Both the position numbers and the translations under genes were made by a program. A stretch of 64,000 bases of DNA from contig JBDLRP010000036.1 of the NCBI GenBank assembly GCA_039799905.1, positions 32,001-96,000 of the forward strand, read 5' to 3'. Below the pieces are notes generated by a model. The model was not told where the DNA came from. It saw nothing but the letters and a program-made list of their open reading frames with translations, and made no database searches. This document shows, piece by piece, positions 15,901-62,859 of this stretch; the stretch's first letter is position 1, and every line of letters starts with the position of its first letter. The DNA comes from Pseudomonadota bacterium (GTDB lineage Bacteria > Bdellovibrionota_B > Oligoflexia > Silvanigrellales > Silvanigrellaceae).

Positions 15901-17140
15901 CTATGACCTTGATGGTAACGAGCGCGATCGTCACTCGATTCCATATGGTGCGAAGGTCTTCGTCAAAGACGGCCAAAACATCGCTGTTGGCAATCAGTTG
16001 ATCGAGTGGGACCCCCACTCAGTCGTTATCGTTGCTGAAGTGGCCGGTAAGGTTCGCTATAGCGACATGGAAGAAGGCGTCTCGTACGAAGAGCGTCAGG
16101 AAGAAACAACGGGTATTTCACGTCGCGTTATTCTCGAGACGCGTGATGCCAAAATTAAGCCTGCATTGTTGGTGACCGATTCCAGTGGAACGGCGGTCAA
16201 GATTTCTCAAACACGTGATGCCAAGTATCTGCTGCCCAGCGGTGCGACGGTCATGTTTGCCGATGGCGAGTCTGTGTTCCCTGGCGATATTCTTTCGAAG
16301 ATTCCTCGCGAACAGGCCAAGACACGCGACATTACGGGTGGTCTGCCCCGCGTTGCCGAGCTTTTCCTCGCTCAGAAGCGTCGTACATTTGCGATCATTT
16401 CTGAGATCGATGGCTACGTCAGCTTCGGTAAGGATACCAAGGGCAAGCGCTGCGTGGTTGTGAAACCGGAAATCGGTGACCACAAAGAGTACCTAATTCC
16501 AAAGGGGCGCCACGTTGTCGTGACTGAAGGAGACTTCATCCGCGCCGGCGAACCGCTTGTGGATGGTTCACTCAACCCGCACGATATTCTTCGTGTTTTG
16601 GGTGAGAAGGCACTTGCAAGCTACTTGGTTTCTGAGATTCAGGCCGTTTATAAGCTTCAGGGCGTGCCAATTGACGATAAGCACATCGAAATTATCGTTA
16701 AGCAGATGCTCCGTCGCGTGAAAATCAAGGACCCAGGAGATACCGAGTTCCTTCCTGCAGCTCAGGTTGAGAAGTGGACATTCGAAGAGCAGAATGAGCT
16801 TGCGGTTGCTCGCGGTGCTCGTCCTGCCGTGGCTGAGCCCTTGCTTCTTGGTATTGCCCGGGCGGCCTCGTCAACGGAGTCGTTCATTTCGGCTGCCTCG
16901 TTCCAGGAAACGACAAAGGTTCTTACAGAAGCTTCGTTGTCCGGCCGCGTAGACCTTTTGCGTGGTCTGAAAGAAAACGTCATCATGGGTCGCCTGATTC
17001 CTGCAGGTACGGGAGTCAACTTGTACAAGAATGTTGATATGTTCGTTGAGGGCCAGACACTTGATGCCGAAGCCATTATTGAGGCGGCAACACCTTCGAT
17101 GGTTGCACGTCTTGGTGGTCATGCGCATAACTACCGATAA
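12947..17140 (+). CDS. rpoC: RNA polymerase beta' subunit
   Basis: 1397 aa; zinc-binding Cys motifs, catalytic [20 protein letters not shown] trigger loop. Confidence 0.99.
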
Positions 17141-17167
17141 TTTGGCTACTTAGGCCGAGTAAAGACG

Positions 17168-17199
17168 AGCCCCGAAACCTGCGTTCGGGGCTTTTTTTT
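17168..17199 (+). terminator. Rho-independent terminator after rpoC
   Basis: AGCCCCGAA-acctgcg-TTCGGGGCT followed by a run of T. Confidence 0.9.
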
Positions 17200-17238
17200 A
17201 TTTAGAAATTCGCATGGAATCTATTTTTTAAGGTTTAC

Positions 17239-17268
17239 TTGACAAGGTTTCGGCTGTTGGATATGGCT
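17239..17268 (+). promoter_or_regulatory. Putative sigma70 promoter of the S10 operon
   Basis: Perfect TTGACA at 17239-17244, 17-nt spacer, weak -10 TATGGC; AT-rich tract upstream; lies between the rpoC terminator and rpsJ. Confidence 0.5.
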
Positions 17269-17294
17269 CGAGGCCCATACTTGGAGATGTCTAG

Positions 17295-17606
17295 ATGGAA
17301 AGCCAAAAAATTCGCATTCGTCTTAAGGGATATGACGTAGCGCTCGTAGATCAGAGCGTTGCGCAAATTATTAGCAAGGCTAAAGGTACTGGCGCGCGCA
17401 TTGCGGGTCCTGTTCCGATGCCCACTCTCATCAACCGCTATACGGTTTTGCGTTCACCGCATGTGGACAAGAAATCACGTGAGCAGTTCGAAATCAGAAC
17501 TCACCGCCGTTTGATCGACCTGCTCGAGCCCAAACAGCAGACGGTGGATGCTCTGATGAAGCTCGACCTCGCTGCCGGCGTGGATGTTGAGATTAATCTT
17601 TACTAA
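17295..17606 (+). CDS. rpsJ: 30S ribosomal protein S10
   Basis: [31 protein letters not shown]. Confidence 0.98.
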
Positions 17607-17688: not shown

Positions 17689-18240
17689 ATGATTCGTAAT
17701 GCATTTATCAAGGTCGGCATGACCAGTGCATTTACCGAAGCGGGAGAAGCGCAGGGCGTGACCGTTCTGCGTCTGCAACCTGCGAAGGTTGTTCGTCACG
17801 AGAGTCTCCAAGATGGGCGCACTCTGGTTGTCGTTGAGTACGATACCGGTGCAAAAAAGAAGACAACTCGTGGTTGGGCAGTTCAAAATGCCGCTGAATT
17901 TCCAGTCGGCTCATCTGTTGCCTCACCTGCTTTGACAGCAGGCCAGCTCGTCAAACTGACGGGAATCTCCAAAGGTAAAGGTTTTCAGGACGCAGTGACA
18001 CGCCACGGCTTTGCCGGCGGTCCTGCAAGTCATGGTAGCCGTTTCCATCGTGCTCCTGGTTCTGTCGGTATGCGTACCGAACCAGGCCGTACCCCTAAGG
18101 GTAAACGCCTGCCGGGTCATCACGGCGATTCACAAGTCACCCTGCGCAAAGTTCAGGTTGCATACTGGTCAGGCGACGAAGCAATTCTCGCTGTGGTCGG
18201 TGGTGTACCGGGACCTCGCGGCGGCCTCGTATTCATTTAA
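17689..18240 (+). CDS. rplC: 50S ribosomal protein L3 (short, divergent)
   Basis: KVGMT, SKGKGFQ, ASHGSRFHRAPGSVG, VPGPRGGLV; position in S10 operon; ATG 17689 after GAGGGA gives 183 aa. Confidence 0.93.
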   Translation: MIRNAFIKVGMTSAFTEAGEAQGVTVLRLQPAKVVRHESLQDGRTLVVVEYDTGAKKKTTRGWAVQNAAEFPVGSSVASPALTAGQLVKLTGISKGKGFQDAVTRHGFAGGPASHGSRFHRAPGSVGMRTEPGRTPKGKRLPGHHGDSQVTLRKVQVAYWSGDEAILAVVGGVPGPRGGLVFI

Positions 18241-18263
18241 TTAGGCGAGTGAGGAACACTGAG

Positions 18264-18860
18264 ATGTTGTCGCAAATTAAAACATTACCAAGTTGGTTGG
18301 CAGAAGGTGCTGAAAAAAGCGAAGGCACGCTGTGGCAAGTCGTGAAGGCTTATCGTGCTAACCGTCGTCAGGGCACTGTTGGCGTAAAGACTCGCGCAAT
18401 GGTCGCTTCGACTGGCAAAAAGCCCTACAAACAGAAGAAAACCGGTAGTGCACGCCGTGGTTCATTTGTCTCCCCGCTGCATGTTGGCGGTGGTGTTGCT
18501 CACGGTCCAAAGGCTCGTGACTACCGTGAAGCTATCCCGAGCAAGATGGCAAACGTTGCTCTTCAAATTGCACTTGCTCACCGTGTTAAAGCTGGAAAGG
18601 TTTTCACTGGTGCTGTGGAAATTCCTTCCGGAAAAACAAAAGACGCATGGAAACTCTTTAAGGAGATTGACGAGAAGGCAGGAAAAGTTCTTGTTTGTCT
18701 GTCGAATCCCTCCGAGCTGACCTTGCGCGCAGTCCGCAACATCCGTGGTGTTGTGCTTGTCAAACCAGAGCAAGTCACTGCCCTTGACATCGTCGAGTGC
18801 AGAAAACTTGTTGCGACCGGAGAGGCGATGGAAATCCTCTCTCGCCGACTCACGAAGTAA
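18264..18860 (+). CDS. rplD: 50S ribosomal protein L4
   Basis: RANRRQGT..VKTR, KKPYKQKKTGSARRGS, GGGVAHGPK; start ATG 18264 or GTG 18249. Confidence 0.95.
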   Translation: MLSQIKTLPSWLAEGAEKSEGTLWQVVKAYRANRRQGTVGVKTRAMVASTGKKPYKQKKTGSARRGSFVSPLHVGGGVAHGPKARDYREAIPSKMANVALQIALAHRVKAGKVFTGAVEIPSGKTKDAWKLFKEIDEKAGKVLVCLSNPSELTLRAVRNIRGVVLVKPEQVTALDIVECRKLVATGEAMEILSRRLTK

Positions 18861-18871
18861 AGGGGTGAGAG

Positions 18872-19198
18872 ATGCGTTCTGATCTCGTAATTCTTGGTTC
18901 GATTCTGAGTGAGAAAGCTGTCACGCTTTCTGCACAAAATGTCTTTGCACTCAAAGTGGCAAAGAAGGCGTCGAAAGCTGATGTTTCCAAAGCAGTCAAA
19001 GCCGTATTCGGCGTCGATGTGCTCGAAGTCAACACAGCAATCGTCCGTGGTCGCGTCGCGCGCAAGGCTCGCAGCAAAAGTGCTGGCCCTGTGACCGTGA
19101 AGGCACCAAACTATAAGAAGGCATACGTTCGGTTGAAAGAAGGTCAGACACTGCCTGTAGCAGGTCTGGTCGCAGCAGAAACCGAGCAAGGTAAGTAA
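18872..19198 (+). CDS. rplW: 50S ribosomal protein L23
   Basis: SEKA, AVKAVFGVDV.EVNT, YKKAYVRLKEGQ; synteny. Confidence 0.93.
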   Translation: MRSDLVILGSILSEKAVTLSAQNVFALKVAKKASKADVSKAVKAVFGVDVLEVNTAIVRGRVARKARSKSAGPVTVKAPNYKKAYVRLKEGQTLPVAGLVAAETEQGK

Positions 19199-20383: not shown

Positions 20384-20707
20384 ATGAACGCTAAAGCTTC
20401 GCATTACGCAGCAAAGTGCACGCCCCGCAAAGCGCGTCTTCTGCGTCCACTGGTCAAAGGCAAGACGGCAGCTGCCGCGGTTGCACTTCTCAGCGCTGAA
20501 AGACGCGCTGGATCGGTTGCAACAATCAAATTGATTAAATCTGCCATGGCGCAACTTCCCAAGGAACTGGCGGCCAACGCGGTAGTAGCGGATTTGGTGG
20601 TGAATGAAGGTCCTCGTCGTACGACCTACATGCCTCGCGCTCAAGGACGCGCGTCGCCTGTAACGAAGAAGACATCGCACTTAACAGTTCGCTTGGCACT
20701 TGGTTGA
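20384..20707 (+). CDS. rplV: 50S ribosomal protein L22 (divergent)
   Basis: TPRKARL, KLIKSA, VNEGP, PRAQGRA, KTSHLTV; synteny. Confidence 0.93.
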   Translation: MNAKASHYAAKCTPRKARLLRPLVKGKTAAAAVALLSAERRAGSVATIKLIKSAMAQLPKELAANAVVADLVVNEGPRRTTYMPRAQGRASPVTKKTSHLTVRLALG

Positions 20708-21418: not shown

Positions 21419-21844
21419 ATGTTAGCTCCAAAGAAAGTTAAATTTCGTAAGTCCCACAAGGGACGTATCAAGGGTGTTGCGGACCGTTGTAACACAGTTT
21501 CTCTCGGTGACTTCGCTCTTCAGGCTGTTGAGCCTGGAAAGCTGACCTCGCGTCAGATTGAAGCAAGCCGAATTGCCTTGACTCGCCACATTAAGCGTGG
21601 TGGTAAGGTGTGGATTCGCGTGTTTCCGGACAAGCCGATCACCAAGAAGCCAGCTGAAACACGTATGGGTTCTGGTAAAGGCGGCTTGGATCACTGGGTT
21701 GCACCAATTCGCGCTGGTCGCGTGGTGTTTGAAATTCAGGGTATTCCCGAAAATCTCGCACAGGAAGCTTTCGCGCTGGCAGCTGCGAAACTTCCCTTCA
21801 AGACTCGGGTTGTGTCCCGCGCTGCTAAGGTTTGGGAGGTCTGA
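21419..21844 (+). CDS. rplP: 50S ribosomal protein L16
   Basis: [35 protein letters not shown]. Confidence 0.99.
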
Positions 21845-22041
21845 TGAGCTCGAAGAAGACGAAAGAAACGATTTCACCAGCCGACGCAGCTGCACGCAAG
21901 CGCGAGCTCGCGAAGGATCTCGTGAAGTTCCGCGTATCGCTTGATCCAAGCACGATTGCATCGGGCAAAGGTCCGGTCCAACTCCGCCGTGAGTTGCGTG
22001 TCCTTGGCCGCGCAGCAGCCGCGAACAGCAAGAAGAAGTGA
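21844..22041 (+). CDS. rpmC: 50S ribosomal protein L29 (highly divergent)
   Basis: 65-aa basic helical ORF coupled to rplP (TGATG), between rplP and rpsQ; residual EL..DL..FR and LRRELR pattern; assigned mainly by synteny. Confidence 0.75.
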   Translation: MSSKKTKETISPADAAARKRELAKDLVKFRVSLDPSTIASGKGPVQLRRELRVLGRAAAANSKKK

Positions 22042-22051: not shown

Positions 22052-22306
22052 GTGACAACGACTGATAAAGTAACAAAGAACCCCGTGAGAGCGCGCGTCG
22101 TAGGCCTGTCCAAGGACGGGAAAACTGCGAAAGTTGAAGTTCCTCGCGTTGTTGTAGCCGAACGTTATGGTAAGCGCCTTCAACGTGAAATCTCGCTTCA
22201 CGTTGATACTGCCGACACGAAGGTGATGGAAGGCAAGGAAGTCATGATTCTTCCCTGCCGTCGTATTTCGAAGACCAAGAGCTGGAAAGTAGTTTCCGTT
22301 ATTTAA
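22052..22306 (+). CDS. rpsQ: 30S ribosomal protein S17 (divergent)
   Basis: KTAKVEV, RYGK, CRRISKTKSWKVV; synteny. Confidence 0.92.
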   Translation: MTTTDKVTKNPVRARVVGLSKDGKTAKVEVPRVVVAERYGKRLQREISLHVDTADTKVMEGKEVMILPCRRISKTKSWKVVSVI

Positions 22307-22332: not shown

Positions 22333-22710
22333 GTGATTCAACCGGAATCCATCCTGGTAGCAGCTGATAACAGCGGAGCGCGATCACTCAACGTTATTCG
22401 CGTCATGGGCGGCTCGTTCCGCCGTTACGCGCGCGTTGGTGACTTGATCGTAGTTTCCGTCAGAGACGCTGTGCCTGGAGGCCGTGTGAAAAAAGGTGAA
22501 GTTCACAAGGCCATCGTCGTCAGATGCAAAAAAGAAGTGTCTCGCGCTGACGGATCAAGCATCCGTTTTGACGAAAACGCAGCTGTTCTTGTCAAAATTG
22601 TCAAGAACGAACGTGAGCCAATCGGCACCCGTATCTTCGGGCCCGTTGCTCGTGAACTGCGCGCTCGCAACTGCGGAAAAATCATTAGTCTTGCTCCGGA
22701 GGTCTTGTAA
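22333..22710 (+). CDS. rplN: 50S ribosomal protein L14
   Basis: [39 protein letters not shown]. Confidence 0.99.
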
Positions 22711-22712
22711 TT

Positions 22713-23348
22713 ATGGCAACCGATAAGAACGCGACAGCCAAGAAAGCTGGCGGAAAGAAAGCCGACGCGGGCGTGACCGTTGTGCGTGGCGAACATGTAA
22801 AGGGTGTCAAACCACGCTACTTGTCGAAATTCAGCGACAGCGTGTTCCCAGAGCTCAAGAAGCGCCACAAAGACACCAACCCAATGGAGCTTCCAAAACT
22901 GGTGAAGATTGTTGTCAACACCTGTCAGGGTGAAGCGACACAGAACATCAAGGCTCTTGAGTCGGCTGCTGCTGAACTTGAGATGATCACGGGCCAGAAG
23001 CCTTTGATCACCCGCGCTAAAAAGTCTATCGCTTCGTTTAAGTTGCGCGCAGGAATGCCGATCGGCGCTTCCGTAACTCTCCGTCGCGAAAGAATGTTTG
23101 AGTTTTATGACCGTCTCGTGAACGTTGCTCTTCCTCGCGTACGCGATTTCCGCGGCGTTTCTGTGAACAGCTTCGACGGTCGTGGAAACTACTCGTTGGG
23201 TTTGCGTGAGCAGATTATTTTTCCGGAAATTGAAGCTGACAAGGTCGACAAGTCTCGCGGCCTCAGTATCACGATAGTGACATCCGCCAAGACGGATGAG
23301 TCAGCTCGTGAGCTGCTGACTCTTCTCGACATGCCATTCCGTAAGTGA
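22713..23348 (+). CDS. rplE: 50S ribosomal protein L5 with ~33-aa N-terminal extension
   Basis: [48 protein letters not shown]; follows rplN after a 2-nt gap with no rplX between. Confidence 0.97.
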
Positions 23349-26077: not shown

Positions 26078-27415
26078 ATGGCACTTGCCGAAGAGAGCGG
26101 TGAGAATCTGTTGTTGAAAAGAGTGGCTTTCACTCTGTTGGCTCTGATGGTTTTCCGGTTGGGTGTGCATATTCCGACTCCGGGTGTGAACACGCAAGCT
26201 CTTGTCACTCTGGCAAGCCAGAACTCTGGCGGCCTCCTGAAAATGTTGAATATGTTTTCTGGTGGCGCACTTAACCAGTTCTCTATTTTCGCGTTGGGCG
26301 TCATGCCCTACATTTCTGCGAGCATCATCATTCAGCTTATGACCGTCGTCGTGCCCTCACTGGAGCAGCTCCAGAAAGAGGGCGGCGTCGGTCGTCAAAA
26401 GTTGAACCGCATCACGCGCACGCTTGCTGTAATTATCGCTGTTTTGCAGGGCTACCTTGCGGCTGTTGCGCTGGAGAAGGCACCTGAAACTGCCGCTGGC
26501 GCTGCTGTTCTCGACCCTGGTTTTGCTTTCAGAGCTCTGGCAGCTCTTCTTCTCACGTCAGGGACGTGTTTTGTGATGTGGCTCGGAGAGCAGATCACCG
26601 AAAAGGGAATTGGTAACGGGACATCGTTGATTATTTTCGCCGGTATCGTAGCTTATTTTCCAAATGGACTCGGTACGGTAATTGAAGGCCTCAAGGACAA
26701 CAGTATGACAGTTGTCACAGCTCTTGGTCTTGCGGCGTTTTTGATAGCACTCGTATTCGGAATCTCTTTTATTGAGCAGAGCTACCGCAAAATTGCGGTT
26801 CATTATGCGAAAAGAACCATAGGTAATCGCGTCACGTCTGGCCAATCGACGCACCTTCCTTTGAAGGTGAACATGTCCGGTGTGATTCCCGCAATTTTTG
26901 GAAGTACAATTCTGGCTGTGCCATTGTCTTTCGGAGGATTTTTCGGAAAGACTGAGGCGAGTCCTTGGATGTCGGCGCTTTTTCCGAATCAGTGGCTCTA
27001 CAATGTTCTGTTTGCATTGCTGGTGCTTTTTTTCTGTTATTTTTACACGTCAATTACCTTCAAGCCGGATGACATCGCCGAGAATTTGAAGAAACAGAAC
27101 GCCTACATCCCCGGAATTCGCCCAGGTACAGAAACAGCTGAAGCCCTCGACATGGTGGTGACACGTCTGACCTTGGCAGGTGCAATCTACATGAATCTGG
27201 TGTGCATCATCCCACAGGTTGTCACGGGTGGCTTTTCTGAAAAACTTTTTGTGGGCGGAACGAGTCTTTTGATTGTGGTTGGCGTTGCGCTTGAAACCGT
27301 TCGACAGGTAAGTGCGCAGTTGGCAACTCAGCGCTACGACTCATTGCTTTTTACGGGCAAGGGTAACGATTCTGCACCCAACCTGACTCCAGCGACTGAT
27401 CGGAGTCCGCTGTGA
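26078..27415 (+). CDS. secY: Preprotein translocase subunit SecY
   Basis: FSIFALGVMPYISASIIIQL, WLGEQITEKGIGNG.SLIIF, LPLKVNMSGVIP, IPGIRPG, GGTSLLIVVGV. Confidence 0.98.
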   Translation: MALAEESGENLLLKRVAFTLLALMVFRLGVHIPTPGVNTQALVTLASQNSGGLLKMLNMFSGGALNQFSIFALGVMPYISASIIIQLMTVVVPSLEQLQKEGGVGRQKLNRITRTLAVIIAVLQGYLAAVALEKAPETAAGAAVLDPGFAFRALAALLLTSGTCFVMWLGEQITEKGIGNGTSLIIFAGIVAYFPNGLGTVIEGLKDNSMTVVTALGLAAFLIALVFGISFIEQSYRKIAVHYAKRTIGNRVTSGQSTHLPLKVNMSGVIPAIFGSTILAVPLSFGGFFGKTEASPWMSALFPNQWLYNVLFALLVLFFCYFYTSITFKPDDIAENLKKQNAYIPGIRPGTETAEALDMVVTRLTLAGAIYMNLVCIIPQVVTGGFSEKLFVGGTSLLIVVGVALETVRQVSAQLATQRYDSLLFTGKGNDSAPNLTPATDRSPL

Positions 27416-51952: not shown

Positions 51953-52348
51953 TCACCTCCGGTTTGCAAAGATTTTTTCAATTTTCTCTTTGAGAGTGGC
52001 CGCATTGAAGGGCTTGACGATGTAGCTGCTGACTCCCGACTTAACGGCTTCCACAATGTTTTCCTTGTCGGCCTCAGCTGTGACCATCAGAAACGGAAGT
52101 CCCTTGAGGTTGGGGTCGGCGCGCACTGACTTGAGCAGCTCGATGCCTGTGACGTTGGGCATGTTCCAGTCGGAGATGACAAATTGGATATCAGGCTTTT
52201 GCCTCAGAATTTTCAGCGCAGACTCGCCGTCTTCAGCTTCCTGCACGTCATTATAGCCAAGCTGGCGTAAAACCTGACGCACGATTTTACGCATCGTCGG
52301 GAAGTCGTCGACAACAAGGATTTTAAGATCGGTTGGTGGCATCGGCAT
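51953..52348 (-). CDS. cheY: Chemotaxis response regulator CheY
   Basis: [44 protein letters not shown]. Confidence 0.95.
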
Positions 52349-52360
52349 GTGTCTTCTCCG

Positions 52361-53254
52361 TCATTCCTGCAAAAGATTTTTAAGTTTAAGTCTCATTTTT
52401 TGAACGGCCTGCGTGTGCAGCTGAGAGACACGCGACTCCGTAACGTCGAGAATGCGGCCGATTTCCTTGAGATTAAGATCTTCGTAGTAGTAGAGGCTGA
52501 GAACAAGTTTTTGTTTCTCCGGAAGCTCTTCGACAGTCTTGAGAATGATGTCGCGGACTCCCTTTGCCTTCAGCATGGTGAAAGGGTTTTTTGAGTTTGG
52601 GTTTTCAAGGCATTCAAGCAGCGATTTCTTATCGCCGGAGTGAACGCCGCCGAGTTCCTCCAAGGAAAGCATGGAGACGCGGGTTCTCCCTGACTTTTCA
52701 TGGAATTCTTCGAGAGAGATTTCCAGGTGCTCCGCTGTTTCCTTGTCTGTCGGAGGCCGTCCCAGCTTTTGCTCGAGCTCGTATCGTGCCCGTTCCTCGC
52801 GCTTGTTGGTCTCACGCACGGAGCGTGGCACCCAGTCCTGATTGCGGAGTTCGTCGAGAATTGCACCGCGGATACGGAATTCAGCGTATGTTTTGAATTT
52901 GTTGTCGCGGCTTGGATCGTATTTGTCGATGGCGTCCATCAGACCAATGACGCCAGCCGAAAACAGGTCGTCGAGGTCGATATTCGAAGGCAGACGTGCA
53001 GCAATCTTTTGCGCGATATATTTGATGAGGGGAGCATAGTCCATGATCACCTGATTGCGCATCGGATCGTTGGCCGCAGCCTGCGCTCGCGCCTGAGATG
53101 AGGATTGCTTCTTCGCAGCGGCTTTCCTTGCTGCTCGCTCGCCGCTCTCGCTGTCATAGATAGACGTTTTGGTTGCAGTCTGACCTTTGTCAGCGGCTTT
53201 CTCGCCGGCTTTTTCCTGAAGAGGCTGCTTTTTAGCTGCGGTGCCCGTGCTCAT
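52361..53254 (-). CDS. fliA: Flagellar sigma factor sigma28 with N-terminal extension
   Basis: RLPSNIDLDDL, GLMDAI.KYD, FKTYAEFRIRGAILDELR..DWVPRSVR, LNLKEIG.IL.VTESRVSQLH. Confidence 0.95.
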   Translation of the reverse strand: MSTGTAAKKQPLQEKAGEKAADKGQTATKTSIYDSESGERAARKAAAKKQSSSQARAQAAANDPMRNQVIMDYAPLIKYIAQKIAARLPSNIDLDDLFSAGVIGLMDAIDKYDPSRDNKFKTYAEFRIRGAILDELRNQDWVPRSVRETNKREERARYELEQKLGRPPTDKETAEHLEISLEEFHEKSGRTRVSMLSLEELGGVHSGDKKSLLECLENPNSKNPFTMLKAKGVRDIILKTVEELPEKQKLVLSLYYYEDLNLKEIGRILDVTESRVSQLHTQAVQKMRLKLKNLLQE

Positions 53255-53275
53255 AACTTCCCCCAACAGGATTCT

Positions 53276-54217
53276 TTAGCTCAAAGTTTCTGTCGTTTGC
53301 CCTGCGACAAGCCGCTTCCAGAAGAACTGCATTGTTCCCTTTGGCTGCGGTGTGTCGCTGTTGAACAGGATCTCGCGCGCCACTGTGCGCAGTCCTCTGG
53401 ATGCTGGCGAAAATGGATAGCGCTGTACGTAGGGCGCTCGTTCACGCACCGAACTCCGCACGGATTCACAGAAAGGCACGGCGCCTGCGTAATCGACTTT
53501 GACCTGAAGGTATTCGGCCGCGACGGAGCTGAGTCGCTCGTAGACCCGCAGAGCTTCTTCGTCGCTCTTTGCCATGTTGACGACGAGTTTGAAGCAGGAC
53601 TCGTTATTCGTCTGTGCGAGAACTTTCATGGTTGCGTAGGCGTCCGCAAGGCTCGTCGGCTCGGGAGTCGCAACCAGCAGGACTTCGGAAGCGCTTGCCG
53701 CCCAATGCTGGACGTTTTTCGACACACCAGCAGGCGTGTCGATCAGGACGACATCGAAGTCGTCTTGGATACTTTCAATTTGGTCGAGAAGAACCAGTTT
53801 CTGCATTTTTCCCAACTCATTCACCCGTGACATGCCGCTGGAAGCCGGAATCAGGCGTAATCCTTCCGGTCCAGTGATGATGACATCACGCAGCTCCCGC
53901 TCTCCCATCAGGACGTCGTCCAAAGTGGACTCCGCTCTTAAATTGAGAATCACATCGAGATTTGCGAGACCAAGGTCACCATCTATCAGCAATGTTCGCA
54001 TCCCCTCGCGGACGAAACACAGCCCAAGGTTTGCAGTGGTCAAAGTTTTGCCGACCCCTCCCTTGCCTCCGGTGACAGTAAATACCCGCGGTGCCTTGCT
54101 GATGGCCGACGAATTGCTTCCGCTCTTTCTCATGCCAGTGTTGACTGTTGTACCGCCCGGAACATGGACACGGGCTTCTTCCATCAGGCGGCGCAGAGTT
54201 GTTGCTTGATCAAACAC
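53276..54217 (-). CDS. flhG: Flagellar number regulator FlhG (MinD-like ATPase)
   Basis: N-terminal DQAxxLR activator helix, GGKGGVGKT, DGDLGLANLD, TPEPTS.ADAYA. Confidence 0.93.
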   Translation of the reverse strand: MFDQATTLRRLMEEARVHVPGGTTVNTGMRKSGSNSSAISKAPRVFTVTGGKGGVGKTLTTANLGLCFVREGMRTLLIDGDLGLANLDVILNLRAESTLDDVLMGERELRDVIITGPEGLRLIPASSGMSRVNELGKMQKLVLLDQIESIQDDFDVVLIDTPAGVSKNVQHWAASASEVLLVATPEPTSLADAYATMKVLAQTNNESCFKLVVNMAKSDEEALRVYERLSSVAAEYLQVKVDYAGAVPFCESVRSSVRERAPYVQRYPFSPASRGLRTVAREILFNSDTPQPKGTMQFFWKRLVAGQTTETLS

Positions 54218-54244
54218 GCTGACAGTCTCCCTTTTCTCAGTTCA

Positions 54245-55750
54245 TCAAAGTTTGAAAATCCGTTCCACGACCCGCTCCTTGGTGGCGGGTTCCAAATCTT
54301 CGGGCACTTTTTGCCCAGTGGTAAAAAAAGACACGGGAATCTTGCTGGTGATGTTGGTGTTGAGAATTTCTCCGAAGCTCCACGACTCGTCGAGCTTCGT
54401 AAAAATCAGACTCTGGGGACTGACCGTCCTGAATGCCTTCAGAGTTTCATCCAGATCGCGTTGTTTCATGCTCGCAGAAAGAACCATGTGATAATGAACC
54501 GGAAATGGCATCGTGCTCAGCTGGCGCAGCTGCTCCATTTGCAGAACATGCTTGCTGCTTCGTCCTGCAGTATCGATGAAGATGGCATCGTAGTCGTAAT
54601 ATTTTGTCACGAAATCCGAGAGGTCTTGAAGATCGCTGACCTCAGAGAACGGACAATCGAGAATTTTTGAATATGCCCGCAATTGATCGGCAGCCGCGAT
54701 CCGGAACGAATCCATACTGACGAGCGCAACCCGCTTTTTGTCGTGAAGCTGAAGTCTGGCCGCAAGTTTTGCGATAGTTGTGGTTTTACCCACGCCTGTC
54801 GAGCCGACTAAAGCAATCACCTTCTGATTTGCAAAGCTTGTTGACGGCGTGACGCTCATCTGTCGAAACAAAAAACGTATCGACTGATTGAGATAATGCT
54901 CTCTGAGCTTTTCTCCCGTCAGCAGCTGACCGTCCGAGTGGCTCGGCTTTGGCCCGGACGTGACGACGTGAGCCAATTCCGAAATAATCGCTTCAATGAC
55001 TCCAGCAGCACGCAGTCTGATGCAAATGTCGTTGAGGCATTCGTCCTTAATGACCGCGGTGTCGCCGTCGGACTGATACCTTTGCCTCATGAGATCATGC
55101 AGCAAAACGCGGATTTCCTGCATCTGTTCCGAAACATTGATATGCGGAATCTGTTCGATTTCGCGCCTGACGCGTCCCAATTCATCGCGCAGAACTTTAA
55201 CTTCTTCGGTTGAGCTCTCGTCGAATTTTCTTGTCACTCCAGTCAGGTGTGAAAGGTTTGAATCAGAAGAACGCAGCTGTTGCTGGTTGTTCTGACTGGC
55301 TCCGAGAAGCTCGCCGGATGTCAGATGACTCGTGCGTTTCTGGACCGCGGTTGAGGAGCTCTGCTGGGTTCCCTCCAATGCGCTGGCAAGAGTCTTTGCG
55401 AGTGAGCGGGTGGCTGTGTTGAGTTGTGGCAGCGTGTTGTTTGTCTTGATGACGCTCACATCGGATTTTTGATCCGCCTTCGGGAAATTGACCCGCTGCG
55501 CACGTGCGGCCTCTTCCGGAGAAAGCACCGTACTGCGCGGGCGAAGTGCTGATTGCCTGACCTGTGCATGATTGGTGGCGGCAGGTGCTGCAGTGACCTC
55601 AATGACGCGCAAGGGGCGTCCTGTGTCGTCGGACACAGTCGTCTTTTCGCGGGTCGAGAGGATGACCGCGTCGCGGCCGAGCTCTTTCTTTACCAGCTTT
55701 ATTGCATCCTGCATGTTGAAGGCTTCGAACTTATGGACATCCATTGTCAC
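54245..55750 (-). CDS. flhF: Flagellar SRP-family GTPase FlhF
   Basis: A...VKKELG.DAVILSTR, GSTGVGKTTTIAKLAA, DTAGRS, TKLDE, TTGQ.VPEDL. Confidence 0.95.
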   Translation of the reverse strand: MTMDVHKFEAFNMQDAIKLVKKELGRDAVILSTREKTTVSDDTGRPLRVIEVTAAPAATNHAQVRQSALRPRSTVLSPEEAARAQRVNFPKADQKSDVSVIKTNNTLPQLNTATRSLAKTLASALEGTQQSSSTAVQKRTSHLTSGELLGASQNNQQQLRSSDSNLSHLTGVTRKFDESSTEEVKVLRDELGRVRREIEQIPHINVSEQMQEIRVLLHDLMRQRYQSDGDTAVIKDECLNDICIRLRAAGVIEAIISELAHVVTSGPKPSHSDGQLLTGEKLREHYLNQSIRFLFRQMSVTPSTSFANQKVIALVGSTGVGKTTTIAKLAARLQLHDKKRVALVSMDSFRIAAADQLRAYSKILDCPFSEVSDLQDLSDFVTKYYDYDAIFIDTAGRSSKHVLQMEQLRQLSTMPFPVHYHMVLSASMKQRDLDETLKAFRTVSPQSLIFTKLDESWSFGEILNTNITSKIPVSFFTTGQKVPEDLEPATKERVVERIFKL

Positions 55751-55783
55751 ACCTCTGGCTGCGAGGAATTACCCGTTTAATCC

Positions 55784-57910
55784 TCAGGAAATCATCTGAA
55801 CATTTCTAATTTTCACAGCGCCCGCCACTTCGTCGTAGGAAAGAACGGCGACCTGCGGTAAATATCGGACCATGAGTCGTTGGAAGGCCTGCCGCAATCG
55901 TGCAGAAATCAACAGCACAGGTTGCGTCCCTTCGGAATCGAAGGCGCTGATGCCCTGCATCAACTTCTGGAGGATCTCCTGAGCCTGACGTGCATCAAGA
56001 TTGAGGTACGAACTGCCGTTGTCTGTCGTCACAAGGCCGCCGCCCAGTATGTCTTCGATCATACGGTCAAAGGTCACCACGACGAGTTCATCCTTTTCGT
56101 TCAGATACTTCTGCGTGATTCCGCGTCCGAGTGCTTTTCTGCACTGTTCAGCCAGAACATCAGGGTTCTTTACAATCTTACAGTGGTCAGCAAGGCACTC
56201 GAAGAGTGAAAGAATGTCCCGCACCGACACGTCTTCGCGCAGCAGATTTTGCATCACTTTGACGACGTCGCCGATCGAAAGACGCTCGGAATGAATGACT
56301 TCCTCAACGACCTTCGGATTCGTCTCCTTGAGTTTGTCGACGAGGTACTGAACATCTTGCCGAGTCAACAGCTCCGCTGCATGTTCACGCAACGCTTTGG
56401 TCAAATGTGTTGCGATGACCGTGGCACAGTTGACAACAGTGTATCCTCGGAAGGCAGCCTCATCTTTCTCGCGCTTGTGCACCCAGATCGCGGGCAGACC
56501 ATAGGCGGGATCAACGGTCGGTTCGCCATTGATTGGCATTTCCACATTGCCCGGGTCCATCGCAAGGAAGTAGTCGACCATCAGTTGCCCGGTGGCGATT
56601 TTGCTGCCCTTGAGTGAAATTGTGTACTGGCCTGGAGCGTTGTTCAGCAGGTTGTCGCGCAGCTGTATCTGCGGAACAACGATTCCCAAATCCTGGGCAA
56701 ATTGCTTGCGGATGCTTTGGATTCTGTCGACAACTTCGCCGTCCTGCTGCGGATCGATTAGGTGAACAAGGGCGTGACCGACTTCGATCGTCAGGACATC
56801 GAGTTTCATGAGTGAATCGATGCTTTCGGAGTCTTTTTTCTCCTTGGCGGCTGTGTCGGTCTCTTTGCCTTCCTGTTCTTTTGCGAGGTCCTCCCTGATT
56901 CTTCTGTCAGCGATGCGGCCGAGCAGAATCAAGATTCCTCCAAGTGAGAGGAACGCTATTTTTGGAAATCCAGGTATCGCAGCAAGTAAAAATAAAATTC
57001 CCGCTGCAACATAAAGCGCTTTCGGATGCACTCTGAATTGTTTTGCAACCTGTCCGCCGAGGTCACCTTCCGATGTCGAACGGGTTACGATAAGACCGGC
57101 AGCAGTCGAAATCATCAGCGAAGGAATTGCTGCGATAAGTCCGTCACCCACGGCAAGCAGTGTGAACGTCTTTGCGGCATCGCCTGCGCTCATGTTGAAT
57201 TGGATGATTCCAATCACCAAACCGACAATCATGTTGACAAGTGTAATAATGATGCCGGCAATGGCATCGCCGCGTACGAATTTTGAAGCACCGTCCATGG
57301 CACCGTAGAAGTCGGCTTCTTTTTCTACCGCGGTTCTTCTGCGGCGAGCCTCTTCAGCATTGATGTGGCCTGCGTTCAATTCGGCATCGATTGCCATCTG
57401 TTTTCCGGGCATAGCGTCGAGAGTAAAGCGAGCGGCGACTTCTGCGATACGACCCGAACCCTTGGTGATGACCACAAAGTTGATGACGGTGAGGATGATG
57501 AAGATGACGAGACCGACGCCGATGTTGTCGGCAATCACGATGTTGCCGAATGCCTTGATGAGTCCGCTCATCTTGCCGGTTGTATCGCCGCCGTGGGTGA
57601 GAATCTGGCGTGTGGTCGATACGTTGAGTGCAAGGCGAAAAAGCGTAGAAACCAGCAGGATCGTCGGAAACACTCCGAAGTCGAGTGGTTTTCGGATGTA
57701 GATTGCGACAAGCATGATAACAAGTGACGTGGATAGAGAAATCGCGAGAAGAAAATCCAGAAGTAAAGCTGGCACGGGGAAGATCATCATCGGCAGAATG
57801 CCGACGACCGCGACGGCCATCAGAATATCCGGACTGCGCATCCAGCTGAGCGCCGACGCTCCGCCCTTACCTTCTGCAACTGTGCCGGTTAATGCGTTTG
57901 CTGTTGCCAT
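55784..57910 (-). CDS. flhA: Flagellar export gate protein FlhA
   Basis: RIAEVAARFTLDAMPGKQMAIDAELNAG, ADFYGAMDGASKFVRGDAIAG, LLREDVSVRD. Confidence 0.98.
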   Translation of the reverse strand: MATANALTGTVAEGKGGASALSWMRSPDILMAVAVVGILPMMIFPVPALLLDFLLAISLSTSLVIMLVAIYIRKPLDFGVFPTILLVSTLFRLALNVSTTRQILTHGGDTTGKMSGLIKAFGNIVIADNIGVGLVIFIILTVINFVVITKGSGRIAEVAARFTLDAMPGKQMAIDAELNAGHINAEEARRRRTAVEKEADFYGAMDGASKFVRGDAIAGIIITLVNMIVGLVIGIIQFNMSAGDAAKTFTLLAVGDGLIAAIPSLMISTAAGLIVTRSTSEGDLGGQVAKQFRVHPKALYVAAGILFLLAAIPGFPKIAFLSLGGILILLGRIADRRIREDLAKEQEGKETDTAAKEKKDSESIDSLMKLDVLTIEVGHALVHLIDPQQDGEVVDRIQSIRKQFAQDLGIVVPQIQLRDNLLNNAPGQYTISLKGSKIATGQLMVDYFLAMDPGNVEMPINGEPTVDPAYGLPAIWVHKREKDEAAFRGYTVVNCATVIATHLTKALREHAAELLTRQDVQYLVDKLKETNPKVVEEVIHSERLSIGDVVKVMQNLLREDVSVRDILSLFECLADHCKIVKNPDVLAEQCRKALGRGITQKYLNEKDELVVVTFDRMIEDILGGGLVTTDNGSSYLNLDARQAQEILQKLMQGISAFDSEGTQPVLLISARLRQAFQRLMVRYLPQVAVLSYDEVAGAVKIRNVQMIS

Positions 57911-57947
57911 TGCCTGCCTCTCTGATGCGGATGGAGCCGGTTAAATT

Positions 57948-59051
57948 TCAACCGACTGCACTCTGCAGGTTGAATCGTTCAAAATAATCGCGACCACGTG
58001 CCTGATAGATCACCTTCATGACTTCGATGACCGAAGCGTAGAGACTGGGCGGAACTTCCTGTCCGACTTTGACTGTCTTATAAAGAGTTCTTGCAAGCGC
58101 CTTGTTCTCGACAAGCATGATGTCGTTCTTTTTTGCGATTTCACGGATTTTCAATGCAAGAAAATCCTGCCCTTTTGCTACGACAATCGGTGCCTGCATT
58201 CCGCGGACATACCTGATGGCCACTGAAAAGTGAGTCGGGTTGGTGATGACAAATGTTGCTGTCGGCACCGCGGCGACGTTTTTTCGCATGATGAGTTCGC
58301 GTGCCATTCTGCGGCGCTGGCTTTTGACGAGCGGGTCACCTTCCTGAGATTTGTTTTCATCCTTGATTTCCTGCTTGCTCATCATCATTTGCTTTTCGAG
58401 CCTGAATAGGCTGTAGCCGTAGTCGGCAGCAGCAAGAACACCGACCGTGATAGTGGTCCAGACGAGCAGTTTGATGACCGAGGACCAAAGTGTGTTGGCG
58501 TATGCCCCTGTGTTTTGAAAATATGCCAAAGCGCTGTATTCGAGTTCGTTCTTCAAAAAGACGTAAAGTACCGTGCACAAGGTTATACCCTTGACGAGTA
58601 CTTTGCCGAGTTCCTCTAGTCCTCCGGCCGATAGCATTCTCTTGAATCCGGAAATGAAATTTAGCTTATCAAAACTCGGGGTGATCTTTTTCCACGACCA
58701 GTTGAACTGGGTGATCGCCAAACCAACGACCGACGGAGTGACCGATAACAGTACAACTGTTCCAGCAAGCACTGGCAAAACCGGAGCAACAATTTGATTT
58801 ACTACATCGATTGGTGAGATCGTGCCGGTACCCTGTTCGCCGATAATTGCAAAGGTGCGATGAAACGCGCTCTTTAGGGAATTCGAAATATCTTGTCCGA
58901 GCATCGACAAGCCAATTGTGACGAGAATCAGAGTGATGGCTGCGAGAATTTCACGAGGGTTCGCGATCTGACCGTCCTCACGGTACTGTTTTCGCCGCTC
59001 TTCGGTGGCTTCTTCGGTTTTGTCTTGCTGACTTTCATCGCGTTCTTCCAT
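57948..59051 (-). CDS. flhB: Flagellar export switch protein FlhB
   Basis: KTEEAT, MSKQEIKDE.K..EGDP, NPTH autocleavage site, VVAKGQD.LALKIREIA. Confidence 0.97.
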   Translation of the reverse strand: MEERDESQQDKTEEATEERRKQYREDGQIANPREILAAITLILVTIGLSMLGQDISNSLKSAFHRTFAIIGEQGTGTISPIDVVNQIVAPVLPVLAGTVVLLSVTPSVVGLAITQFNWSWKKITPSFDKLNFISGFKRMLSAGGLEELGKVLVKGITLCTVLYVFLKNELEYSALAYFQNTGAYANTLWSSVIKLLVWTTITVGVLAAADYGYSLFRLEKQMMMSKQEIKDENKSQEGDPLVKSQRRRMARELIMRKNVAAVPTATFVITNPTHFSVAIRYVRGMQAPIVVAKGQDFLALKIREIAKKNDIMLVENKALARTLYKTVKVGQEVPPSLYASVIEVMKVIYQARGRDYFERFNLQSAVG

Positions 59052-59059
59052 TGCTCACC

Positions 59060-59872
59060 TCAATGCTTCGGATCGAATGCTTTTTGAACGCGGGAGAATG
59101 CAGAAATTTCCTGAATTCCTGCATGTTCACCCATCAAGCGCACAAAAGCAGATGCTGAAAAGAAGAGAACAATCATGCTGAGCAGAAAGCTGACCGGAAA
59201 ACTGATGACGAATGCGTTGAGCTGTGGAAGCGCGCGGTTTAGCAAACCGAGTGCAATCGTTGAGACCATCTGAATCAGAAGGAGCGGTCCTGCAATTCTA
59301 ATTCCTATGTCGAAACTCACGGTGACGGTTTGCATGACGACCGACAGGAGTGCTTTGGAATCCGCTTCGGGAGCAAAGGGAATTGTCACGAATGAAGTTA
59401 CGATGCCCTGAATGAAAACGTGATGAATATTGAAAACCAGAAGAAGAATTGTGATCATCCACACCTTAAGTGATGCGAATGCCGATTCTTGAATACCAAT
59501 CTGCGGAGAGAAAAGGGTTGCGGTTTGAAAGCCCATGTTGACACCGACGATGTTTGCTCCGATTGAAGCGGCAAAGGTCAGGAGCTTTGCCGCGAATCCA
59601 ATAGCAAAGCCAAAAAACACCTCCCTCAGAGTCGCAAGGCCTAGCGTCAGCGGGCTCCATTGGATGAAGCCTGCCGATGAGTGAAGGTGTTTTTCTACAG
59701 TAGGCCATATGCAGAGGCTGAGCATCAGGGCAAAGAGGACACGAATTCTTGAGGGAATCGTGGCATCTCCAAAGATGGGAAGAAAAAACAAAACACTCAC
59801 GATCCGCAGGAAGACCATCACTGCGAGCGGCCAGACTTTTGGATCAAGCTGGAAGAGTGTTTCGTAATTCAT
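59060..59872 (-). CDS. fliR: Flagellar export protein FliR
   Basis: Hydrophobic; LPIFG...IP.RIR, MGF, LGLLNRALPQLN.F.ISFP. Confidence 0.93.
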   Translation of the reverse strand: MNYETLFQLDPKVWPLAVMVFLRIVSVLFFLPIFGDATIPSRIRVLFALMLSLCIWPTVEKHLHSSAGFIQWSPLTLGLATLREVFFGFAIGFAAKLLTFAASIGANIVGVNMGFQTATLFSPQIGIQESAFASLKVWMITILLLVFNIHHVFIQGIVTSFVTIPFAPEADSKALLSVVMQTVTVSFDIGIRIAGPLLLIQMVSTIALGLLNRALPQLNAFVISFPVSFLLSMIVLFFSASAFVRLMGEHAGIQEISAFSRVQKAFDPKH

Positions 59873-60144
59873 TTTTGTCTCATGATCTCTGGAATCTTTT
59901 TAAAGATGTCTTGAGTGTAATTTGTCATACGCCGGACCATCCATGGGCTCATCACTGCGAAGACCGCAATCATTGCGGCAATTTTCGGGAGAAATGAGAG
60001 AGTCGCCTCGTTGATCTGTGTCGCCGCCTGAAAAATGCTGATGAGCAAACCGACCACCAGGGCAGTGACGAGCAGAGGGAGGCTGAGTTCTGCGGTGGCG
60101 TAGATGAGCCCCATGAATATGTCGATGACCTGTTGACTGTTCAT
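59869..60144 (-). CDS. fliQ: Flagellar export protein FliQ
   Basis: VGLLISIFQAATQINEATLSFLPKI; ATG 60144 overlaps the fliP stop. Confidence 0.96.
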   Translation of the reverse strand: MNSQQVIDIFMGLIYATAELSLPLLVTALVVGLLISIFQAATQINEATLSFLPKIAAMIAVFAVMSPWMVRRMTNYTQDIFKKIPEIMRQK

Positions 60145-61031
60145 ACGAAGCTCCTGATCAGTGAACTGGCAAGTAGATTCCAACCGTCCACAACGACGAA
60201 AAGGATAATTTTCAGCGGAAGGCTGACGATGGTCGGCGGTAGCATCATCATACCCATTGCCATCAGCACGCTGCTAACAATCATGTCGATAACGATGAAT
60301 GGCAGATAAACCAGAAATCCGATCTGAAATGCACTTTTGAGTTCACTGATGATGAACGAGGGAATCAACACCCGCATCGAGATGTCCTCAGGCTTTTGCG
60401 GCTGCGGTTCCTGAGAAAGACTTAAAAAGAGTTTAATGTCATCCTTGCGGACTTGGTTCATCATAAAGTCACGCAGTGGTCCTTGGGCTTTGTTGAAAGC
60501 CTCTTCGGCGCTCATCGTCTTTGCCATGTATGGTGCCAGCGCGGTGTCATATATCTTCGTTGTTGTGGGCCCCATGACGAAATATGTGAGAAAGAGCGAG
60601 AGACCAATCAAAACCTGGTTTGGAGGCATAGTCGGCGAGCCAAGTGCCTGCCTGACGAAGCTCAGCACGATCAGAATTCTTGTGAATGCGCTCATCAGAA
60701 GAAGAATTGCGGGTGCGAGTGTCAGAATCGTGAGAATTCCGACCACACGCAGCGCCGGCACCAAATCATCCGGATTTTCAGAGTCGCCGATACTCAACGA
60801 GAACAATGGTATTGAACCGTTTTTTAGACTCGTTTTCGATGGTGTTAGCCCTGGAGCAGTGACAGGAGCGATCTGCGGGATGTTGTTGATTCCCTGTTGT
60901 GACTGCTGCGACTGAGCATGGGCGGCTGACGGCGAAAAGACCAACGGAGCAAGATTTACTGCAGCAAGAAGGCAAGTGACGATGGTCAGGAAATATTTAA
61001 TTTTGTGAACCAGTCCCATTGTCATTTGCAT
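60141..61031 (-). CDS. fliP: Flagellar export protein FliP
   Basis: FTRILIVLSFVRQALG...PPNQVLIGLSLFLT, PSF.ISELK.AFQIGF, MGMMMLPP.IVSLP.K, DGW; start uncertain (61031/61025/61019). Confidence 0.95.
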   Translation of the reverse strand: MQMTMGLVHKIKYFLTIVTCLLAAVNLAPLVFSPSAAHAQSQQSQQGINNIPQIAPVTAPGLTPSKTSLKNGSIPLFSLSIGDSENPDDLVPALRVVGILTILTLAPAILLLMSAFTRILIVLSFVRQALGSPTMPPNQVLIGLSLFLTYFVMGPTTTKIYDTALAPYMAKTMSAEEAFNKAQGPLRDFMMNQVRKDDIKLFLSLSQEPQPQKPEDISMRVLIPSFIISELKSAFQIGFLVYLPFIVIDMIVSSVLMAMGMMMLPPTIVSLPLKIILFVVVDGWNLLASSLIRSFV

Positions 61032-61082
61032 TTTAATCCGCCTGTGAGCGTGAAAGTGTTGACGCCGTCGCGCTGGATACAT

Positions 61083-62426
61083 TCAGGATAGTGGGCGCAG
61101 TTCCTTAAGCCTTTCACGAATCATGTTGGTGACGTTTCCGGCCTCATCTTGATTGCTGGCCTGTTGTGACTGTGATTGCGTCAGGGTTCTTTTGCTCTCT
61201 TGCTCAAACGCGTTTGCAAGGTACTTGGGGAATGCGGCGCGGGTCTGTTTCATGGTAGATTCACGTTTGCCTTCTTCGGCAGGCGGAATTTCTGCCATCC
61301 TTCTTTCAGTGCTTCTGGATTCGCCTGTGCGTGCTGTGGATGTGGAGGACACCGCAGGAGCGTCTGCTTGTTCCTCATTTCTGCTGGGCTTGTTGCGGAG
61401 ATTTTTTTCGCGGAGATTTTTCAGGGCACCCATCAGCATCTCCGAACGAGCTAGCGCGGTTTCCTCACCGGCCGATTCGCCGCCTTGTGCTGAGGATGCC
61501 ACCAACTTGACCGGCTCATCCTGATTTGCACGTTGGGTGACCTTTCTTTTGCGCGGCTCTTCACCGCCTCCGTCGTCGACTAATGCAAGATTCCCGCGAT
61601 TTTGACCCGAAAGCTCCGTCAACATCGTAATTCCGTGTTCCGTCGATGCGAGTGCGACTTCCTTGTCACGGATGCGGACGAGGATGATCTGACGTTTGGG
61701 AGAGAGTGCCATGGAGGTAATGAGCTGAAGTTGTTTCTCAGTTCTTCCTGTGCTGAAGCCGCGTCCTTGTTTGATACGAACTGCCATCACGCCAGTCGCC
61801 GCAATGCCGAGTATGAGGAAGGTTCCTGCAAGTAAGGTCGTCCAAGGAAAACTCTCTGTCTGGCCAATCGGCAACAATTGTGTTTGAAGTGCTGCTCCGT
61901 TGGGTACCATGCTTCCTGCATTCGCGCCCGAAGTGGTAGCGCCCTCAGTGGATTTAGCAGTCTCTATTTGATTCGTCTGCGGTGTTTCAGGCTGCGCGAT
62001 GCTTGCCTGAGCCGCGCTCGCAGCGGGGGAGCTTGGGTTTGCAGCGGTTGGGTTTGGTGTTGTCGTATTAGTTGTCGTGGGCGAAGTGCTGCCTGCATTG
62101 TTTGAGTTTTCAGACGCATTTGGTATGGCATTCACTTGTTGCGCTGCCGGTGCGGTGGTCATTTTTGTTTCGTTGCCCGCGCTGTCGGGCTTCTTCGCCT
62201 GCAGCTCGAAGGTTGCGCCCTGTGTTGGGGTCTCGGGTGATGGAATTGGTGGAACAACTGCGTTGGCAGTCTTGGTCGCGCCCGTGATTGTCTGGACTGA
62301 CGATTTGTTTGCATCATTAGCCGAAGCTGATTGGAGCAGTAGAAGCGAAGACGGCACCAGCCAGACTGTTGCAGCCGCTCTCGCGAGAGTCTCTCTTATG
62401 CTGTTTGAACGGAATAAGTTGTTCAT
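61083..62426 (-). CDS. fliO: FliO-domain protein with long low-complexity extensions
   Basis: Between fliN and fliP; TM helix followed by LQLITSMALSPKRQIILVRIRDKEVALASTEHGITMLTEL (FliO core). Confidence 0.8.
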   Translation of the reverse strand: MNNLFRSNSIRETLARAAATVWLVPSSLLLLQSASANDANKSSVQTITGATKTANAVVPPIPSPETPTQGATFELQAKKPDSAGNETKMTTAPAAQQVNAIPNASENSNNAGSTSPTTTNTTTPNPTAANPSSPAASAAQASIAQPETPQTNQIETAKSTEGATTSGANAGSMVPNGAALQTQLLPIGQTESFPWTTLLAGTFLILGIAATGVMAVRIKQGRGFSTGRTEKQLQLITSMALSPKRQIILVRIRDKEVALASTEHGITMLTELSGQNRGNLALVDDGGGEEPRKRKVTQRANQDEPVKLVASSAQGGESAGEETALARSEMLMGALKNLREKNLRNKPSRNEEQADAPAVSSTSTARTGESRSTERRMAEIPPAEEGKRESTMKQTRAAFPKYLANAFEQESKRTLTQSQSQQASNQDEAGNVTNMIRERLKELRPLS

Positions 62427-62454
62427 CTGGTAACCTCGAGAGTGTTATTTCGTC

Positions 62455-62859
62455 TCAGACTGCTTCTGGAGTGGAAACGTCATCGATGCCCAGTCCGCTC
62501 ATGACGTCGGTCAGACGCACACCGAATTTTTCGTTGACGACAACCACTTCTCCCATCGCGACCAGCTTGTCGTTGACGTAAATTTCCATTGGTTCACCGG
62601 CCATCTTGTCGAGCTCGATAACTGAACCCTGTCCCAGCTGTAGGAGGTCGTTGACCAGCAATTTCGTGCGGCCGAGTTCAACAGTCACTTTAAGCGGCAC
62701 GTCGAGAACCATCTTCATTTTTGAAAGATCGATCCGGCTCATCGGGCTATCTTCATGAAATTTGGCGGGAGAGCCCTGTTCCGGAGCAGACGATTCACCA
62801 AGTGCCTTGCTATCGAGGCCAAAATCTTCCGGACTGAATCCCTGATTGTTGTCTTCCAT
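62455..62859 (-). CDS. fliN: Flagellar motor switch protein FliN
   Basis: LDVPLKVTVELGRT, LLQLGQGSVIELDK.AGEP, GEVVVVNEKFGVRLTD. Confidence 0.97.
   Translation of the reverse strand: MEDNNQGFSPEDFGLDSKALGESSAPEQGSPAKFHEDSPMSRIDLSKMKMVLDVPLKVTVELGRTKLLVNDLLQLGQGSVIELDKMAGEPMEIYVNDKLVAMGEVVVVNEKFGVRLTDVMSGLGIDDVSTPEAV

Follow-up and report, generated by a model that had tools for sequence, protein, structure and literature searches.

Why does the spc operon of this bacterium leave no room for rplX, the gene for ribosomal protein uL24? The available text of two reports counts uL24 among the components of the first intermediate in 50S assembly and describes it as gating the tunnel exit (PMC9935924, PMC6298777). 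The locus in question lies in a 64,000-nt window (the whole stretch of DNA analysed here) from a member of the order Silvanigrellales. A first-pass annotation, made from the letters alone, had taken the locus for an in-frame deletion that fused the first codons of rplX to rplE, leaving a motile bacterium in which L24 was either absent or relocated. The analysis described below leads us to consider it probable, on the evidence of sequence, that the Silvanigrellales have lost uL24 and assemble their large subunit without it, rplX having first moved out of the operon and then disappeared.

The rplN-rplE junction

The arrangement first annotated at the junction is confirmed to the base. The TAA of rplN occupies positions 22708-22710, two bases (TT) follow, and the ATG of a 211-residue L5 begins at 22713, so that nothing of rplX could be accommodated (Table 1). 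The identity of the downstream product as uL5 is borne out by both its domains and its position. The canonical order rplN-rplX-rplE, which had been called almost universal, was indeed found at 78 of the 80 loci of a broad genome scan but is not present in the window; the two exceptions in the scan were one Silvanigrellales record and one Oligoflexus record, the latter also with a direct rplN-rplE junction. The closest named L5, 78% identical, belongs to a Silvanigrellales record and falls within the order of the source genome in the tree. As for the GGAGGT within the end of rplN, its position stands as first described; its service to the L5 start codon is likely from the sequence, and we regard it as the putative ribosome-binding site of rplE. 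Elsewhere in the window rpoC is directly followed by rpsJ (17140-17295), with no str genes between them, and rpsL and rpsG are found on another contig (G000:C16:28929-29991).

The junction is bridged in public sequencing runs by an RNA-library contig (22322-23374, 0 differences) and by a DNA contig of another study (22410-22899, 1 difference); these come from two of four runs, the remaining two of which break or stop near the junction and are evidence neither way. A junction of 0-3 nt, together with an extended L5 (205-226 aa), recurs in 20/20 Silvanigrellales loci examined. Because contigs from two independent studies span the junction, and because it recurs throughout these loci, the absence of rplX here is no assembly error.

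Table 1. Positions of the features discussed (window coordinates unless another record is named)
Feature	Position	Strand	Remarks
rplC (uL3)	17689..18240	+	about 30 internal residues fewer than sister clade, in 7/7 order sequences
rplD (uL4)	18249..18860	+	lacks part of the sister-clade N-terminal segment; modest rate excess
rplW (uL23)	18872..19198	+	6-residue insertion in basic tunnel loop, in 7/7 order sequences; no rate excess
rplV (uL22)	20384..20707	+	ranks first of 26 proteins in order-specific rate excess; 3-residue deletion in 7/7
rpmC (uL29)	21844..22041	+	normal slot; missed by Pfam, NCBIfam and class-derived profile
rplN (uL14), 125 aa	22333..22710	+	PF00238, E 1e-46
Shine-Dalgarno-like GGAGGT	22698..22703	+	within last rplN codons, 9 nt before rplE ATG
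2-nt rplN-rplE junction	22711..22712	+	empty canonical rplX slot
rplE (uL5), 211 aa	22713..23348	+	Pfam L5 and L5_C; precedes rpsN-rpsH
L5 N-terminal extension, about 31-33 aa	22713..22811	+	Lys/Gly/Ala-variable first half, conserved second half
Flagellar export and chemotaxis-type gene cluster	51953-63842	-	by eye
gpmI (BPG-independent phosphoglycerate mutase)-MazG fusion, 939 aa	L067:3121-5940	-	adjoins dsbD back-to-back
60-aa Lys/Arg/Ala-rich ORF	L169:1734-1916; G000:C13:104233-104415	-	no Pfam/NCBIfam match
48-aa basic ORF just upstream of infC	L170:1539-1685; G000:C30:15038-15184	+	no Pfam/NCBIfam match

The search for uL24 in the genome and the order

Does rplX lie elsewhere in the genome? 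The source genome (3.38 Mb, 93.8% complete, 52 contigs) gave no uL24 match with TIGR01079, a search that was positive in 12 of 14 control genomes, and no match at E<=10 with PF17136, which was positive in 11 of the 14. HMMER --max, applied to 94,165 six-frame segments with uL24 profiles built from 5, 15 and 93 sequences, found no uL24 (best E 2.7, 4.6 and 3.8, respectively), and tblastn with five uL24 queries found no remnant (best E 0.08). Among 3,035 predicted genes the top match to the uL24 profile was the KOW domain of NusG (E 0.1); since this domain ranks first, the search reaches a paralogous KOW, and no small KOW protein was found by it in the source genome. The Pfam KOW model matched NusG and, weakly, a single 394-aa frame. 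Inspection by eye of the small basic predicted genes (102 in all) revealed nothing resembling uL24; that list is incomplete in that the gene caller missed short genes (S14 and L36 among them), a gap that the six-frame searches do not share.

The same picture extends to the relatives. PF17136 matched in none of 34 Silvanigrellales genomes, two single-contig and also 3-contig assemblies among them, and a profile derived from the sister clade (the 15 nearest uL24 sequences) gave only five weak matches in these 34 (E 0.17-0.69), which we read as NusG, a long ORF of no relation and, in three cases, stretches without a uL24-like gene. By comparison bL20, the positive control, a protein of similar size encoded outside the operon, was detected in 30 of the same 34. 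Across the class, counting the 104 genomes at least 85% complete, TIGR01079 was found in 0/27 genomes of the source genome's own family against 75/77 of other families. The 34 order genomes are kin, and the absence thus represents one event, not 34. Most of them measure 2.5-5.4 Mb, with 3/34 assemblies under 2 Mb. The absence of uL24 appears from these sequences to extend to the whole order, a clade-wide pattern, with positive controls and single-contig genomes included, of the kind that marks a lineage-specific loss of a ribosomal protein. Of the two outcomes first envisaged, the lack of L24 accords with the searches, none having been detected in the genome or its relatives, whereas relocation does not, no relocated gene being visible to sequence searches.

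In bacteria the standard set comprises 54 ribosomal proteins, and 53 of these are present in the source genome, as are bL9 and trigger factor. Eleven were identified by Pfam, 39 by a further search, S2 and S1 separately, and the last is uL29; uL15 was below the cut-off in the first Pfam search and reached E 2e-40 in the profile control.

How far might a uL24 diverge before it escaped such searches? The gene could still be encoded, or an unrelated protein could fill the site, with divergence past profile detection having followed exit from the operon. Protein uL29 shows what this would entail: although it sits in its normal slot, it escapes Pfam, NCBIfam and an HMM derived from the class, and was identified by position together with a language-model score of 0.86, which makes it a lead-level assignment. 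In this lineage, therefore, a ribosomal protein can change beyond recognition by profiles. The order has a long stem branch (0.38), the uL24-binding helices of the rRNA look intact, and the genes missed by the gene caller leave the list of candidates incomplete, all of which would suit a hidden uL24. Set against this is a direct control of sensitivity, in which profiles built without the order recovered seven of eight diverged ribosomal proteins as top match (E<=6.5e-9), uL29 being the one that failed. The uL24 profile ranks the NusG KOW ahead of any candidate, inspection of the small basic genes yielded none, no weak match is common to the 34 genomes, and the site beside dsbD that holds rplX in the sister clade (see below) is empty of it in the Silvanigrellales loci examined. 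We consider a hidden or substituted uL24 unlikely, and loss of the protein remains the reading that we prefer.

The L5 extension and the history of rplX

The L5 of the window begins with an extension for which about 33 residues had first been estimated, and the match to NCBIfam PRK00010, which starts at L5 residue 35 (profile position 4), bears this out. In an alignment covering 18 of 20 order tails, R25-G26 is invariant (18/18) and K15, H28 and G31 are nearly so; the RG motif was observed only in the order. The segment in which a likeness to the start of L24 had been noticed spans L5 residues 15-31 (nt 22755-22805). Could this be what is left of rplX? An in-place, in-frame deletion on the Silvanigrellales stem, fusing the first KOW codons to rplE and quite separate from any relocation in the sister clade, would agree with the conserved half of the tail, which carries the invariant R25-G26 and by eye, once two gaps are admitted, resembles the computed KOW consensus, and with an ATG that follows the rplN stop by 0-3 nt. 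It would need about as many events as a move followed by a loss, and a relic of 20 residues could erode past detection.

The resemblance is visible by eye and is no better than chance. A Pfam search of the tail at E<=10 gave no match, the score against the uL24 profile was 0.5 bits or less in all 19 tails listed of the 20, and hhalign aligned three columns with a probability of about 0.2%. On an 18-column KOW matrix the 20 tails scored -20 to -33 without gaps and NusG -11, compared with +36 to +52 for true uL24 sequences, which belonged to the training set. Shuffled tails scored as well (p 0.32-0.95 ungapped), and with one gap four tails gave p values of 0.09-0.76, the lowest of which counts in favour of a fusion. 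Residues 1-31 have no strands in an AlphaFold model, with pLDDT under 50; the alignment was shallow (14 sequences), and the fragment could be unfolded off the ribosome. Basic L5 tails of comparable kind (21-67 aa, by eye) occur in at least 8 of the 78 loci that keep rplX, and these score alike (-18 to -38). A profile of the L5 tail found 0 matches at E<=0.001 among 1.84 billion representatives, its own family included, and is without power; a search with L5 residues 1-45 returned five proteins, all L5, from candidates of 116-370 aa only, so that uL24 had no chance of being returned.

In the sister clade, moreover, the same junction goes together with a normal L5 and with an rplX preserved intact at another site, so that a fusion would call for two rare exits in sister clades. 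On the ribosome uL5 is located at the central protuberance, a long way from the tunnel exit, and a fusion to it, even if real, could hardly replace uL24. We therefore reject the fusion of rplX to rplE as the best reading and regard it as improbable. The tail is likely to be an independent basic extension of a kind found in many lineages. The Lys/Ala-rich uL5 tails of Polyangiaceae, Nitrospirota and alphaproteobacterial records are likewise basic and of low complexity and place 20-70 aa before the core, but the genomes that carry them keep rplX in place, and the Silvanigrellales tail differs in its order-specific conserved RG motif. This motif points to some role for the tail, likely to be rRNA binding near uL5 as judged from its conservation.

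What, then, became of rplX? In other orders of the class, the loci show rplN directly followed by an rplE of normal length in 8/10 cases and rplX in place in 2/10. The sister clade (Oligoflexales-type) thus has the identical direct rplN-rplE junction but, unlike the Silvanigrellales, an intact rplX elsewhere and an L5 of about 180-190 aa. The relocated rplX lies beside a gene matching the dsbD of the source genome in 11/13 loci. In the source genome this relocation was not found: dsbD and a gpmI-mazG fusion stand back-to-back and leave no space between them. Among ten other loci of the order, dsbD is paired with a gpmI-like gene (by eye) in eight and has different neighbours in two, and the uL24 profile found nothing upstream of dsbD in these ten (best E 0.085 among 453 segments).

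In a FastTree phylogeny of six proteins (47 taxa, 763 columns only), the two clades with direct junctions are sisters with local support of 0.976, the Silvanigrellales and the relocated-rplX clade each having support of 1.0, and the two genomes of the class that retain rplX in the operon fall outside both. The reading that we favour as the simplest is a single exit of rplX from the operon in the shared ancestor, followed by loss of the lone gene; the numbers of events for this history and for two separate exits are similar. On this history the exit of rplX from the spc operon would date to the ancestor shared with the Oligoflexales-type clade, in which it survives as a lone gene, mostly beside dsbD, and its loss would fall on the Silvanigrellales stem, with rplE perhaps coupled directly to rplN through the Shine-Dalgarno-like sequence in the rplN 3' end. 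The remaining alternative, that rplX lies on a piece left unassembled or unbinned, draws on the incomplete and fragmented state of the source genome and on the greater ease with which a lone gene than an operon gene is lost from a bin, but has next to no likelihood given its absence from all 34 order genomes, single-contig and 3-contig assemblies included, in 30 of which bL20 was found, its recovery in 75 of the 77 other-family genomes, many equally fragmented, and the independent contigs that span the junction.

Early-binding proteins, 23S rRNA and precedents

How might a large subunit be assembled without uL24? In its available text, PMC9935924 describes the first 50S intermediate as roughly 500 nt of domain I together with uL22, uL24 and uL29, to which uL4 and uL23 are then added; bL20 is also listed among the early binders (PMC10931766), and uL4 and uL24 are both said to stabilise the H18-H20 junction (PMC6426284). 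In Silvanigrellales several of these proteins are changed. Relative-rate tests on 26 proteins, with 7 order genomes, up to 12 sister genomes and up to 2 outgroups, placed uL22 first (+0.21) and uL29 second (+0.14), followed by SecY, uS17 and uL4. When 10 outgroups outside the class were used (11 proteins), the excess of uL22 was +0.14 (95% interval 0.09-0.20), that of uL29 was non-significant (+0.06, interval -0.01 to 0.12), and that of uL6 was gone. Tree-based rate ratios (uL22 7.0, uL6 2.6, uL4 2.55, SecY 2.2) are superseded by these bootstrap tests. Against the same outside outgroups uS17 (window 22052-22306) shows a strong acceleration (+0.13), on a par with that of uL22, and nothing obvious connects it with uL24. 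SecY (window 26078-27415), with an order-specific excess of +0.11, docks at the tunnel exit. The N-terminus of uL4 is shortened in all seven order sequences aligned, and uL3, which has lost internal residues (Table 1), is the second assembly initiator. The match of uL22 and uL29 to the proteins of the first 50S intermediate is post hoc, and the signal of co-evolution is mixed.

Protein uL24 binds H7 of the 23S rRNA, and bL20 can replace the initiator at low temperature. The 23S rRNA was not assembled in the source genome and was recovered in three of the five relatives tried. In one family member, domain I fits the Rfam model, the H7 and H18-H20 region included, and this 23S shows no sign of a lost uL24 binding site or domain I helix. 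A single comparison across orders revealed no deletion in H18-H20; the sequences are too few for a covariation test. When compared with one 23S of the sister clade, two 23S sequences of the family (L057 and L058) have three gaps in common, which measure 12, 13 and 26 nt and fall at alignment columns 1217, 1598 and 1771.

The uL23 insertion has a parallel in engineered strains. A longer uL23 loop, when engineered, contacts H6/H7, and loop insertions of 4 or more residues are counted in 1,257/14,104 bacterial uL23 sequences in the accessible part of the same report (PMC9307626). Strains with a longer basic uL23 tunnel loop and no uL24 loop at the exit port show the same pair of features as the Silvanigrellales; they retain the uL24 body, however, whereas in Silvanigrellales no part of the protein was detected, and the condition would be a natural one shared by the whole order. 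In a tentative scheme, the early binders that remain (a strongly remodelled uL22 and an altered uL4, together with uL29 and bL20) would take over the nucleation of domain I, the longer basic loop of uL23 would serve as a clamp on H6/H7, and lack of the uL24 loop would leave a wider tunnel exit. Loss of uL24 is well supported at the DNA level; the compensation was fitted to it post hoc and has mixed support. It is conceivable, at about the same modest level of confidence, that a whole order with mostly normal genomes, some of its members cultured, has a natural uL24-free ribosome in which domain I nucleation and the tunnel exit have been rebuilt, with uL22, uL29 and uL4 remodelled and the uL23 loop gripping H6/H7.

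What precedents are there? The accessible text of Nikolaeva et al. (PMC7782861) reports natural loss of uL24 only in drastically reduced genomes, where it is correlated with bL9, and cites viable uL24 knockouts in E. coli, in which a helicase can also offset a uL24 defect (PMC2770661). The losses in tiny genomes resemble the present case in that the gene is absent and the rRNA binding helices are retained (PMC7782861, in part), but in the source genome bL9, uL29 and trigger factor are retained, as is every other standard ribosomal protein. Simplification of the reductive endosymbiont type, with a genome under about 1 Mb and co-losses, is not what was found in a genome of 3.38 Mb with 53/54 ribosomal proteins. 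Clade-wide losses of S21, L25, L30 and L34 from normal genomes are described in the consulted text of Galperin et al. (bioRxiv 10.1101/2021.01.31.429008), such as bS21 in Actinobacteria and L30/L34/S21 in Halanaerobiales, which are likewise losses on one stem in free-living bacteria; uL24, which initiates assembly universally, is not among these bacterial cases, and neither Silvanigrella nor Oligoflexia appears in the main text. L24 and rpl genes are not mentioned in the accessible portion of a Silvanigrellales genome paper (PMC12321486), and no published report of uL24 loss or relocation in the class Oligoflexia was found in a search that covered little of the subscription literature. The order has cultured freshwater members, according to the part of PMC7386786 available.

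If uL24 is absent, the order would show directly how a 50S subunit begins to assemble when its main initiator is missing, and how proteins are folded and handed off by a ribosome whose exit port is open. Either outcome is informative, be it an empty uL24 site or a uL24 or replacement invisible to sequence searches. The case also bears on those marker-gene sets that treat rplX as universal.

Finally, several observations were made on other small basic proteins. The 60-aa ORF (Table 1) is conserved in 22/24 family genomes and weakly matched in 6/15 other-order genomes; unnamed clusters from Myxococcota and Bdellovibrionota score 0.94 against it, and Thx-family clusters 0.77. With its composition like that of a ribosomal protein it is possibly an unrecognised small ribosomal protein, a candidate put forward from sequence features. 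As a replacement for uL24 it was rejected, since the six other-order genomes that it matches keep rplX and it is thus unspecific to the loss. Two histone H1-like Lys/Ala-rich proteins (G000:C29:107922-108335 and G000:C45:77836-78270) and several HU/IHF-like paralogues were noted by eye elsewhere in the source genome, and the 48-aa ORF upstream of infC is likewise basic. The flagellar and chemotaxis-type cluster of the window, also recognised by eye, is consistent with the motile habit first ascribed to this bacterium.
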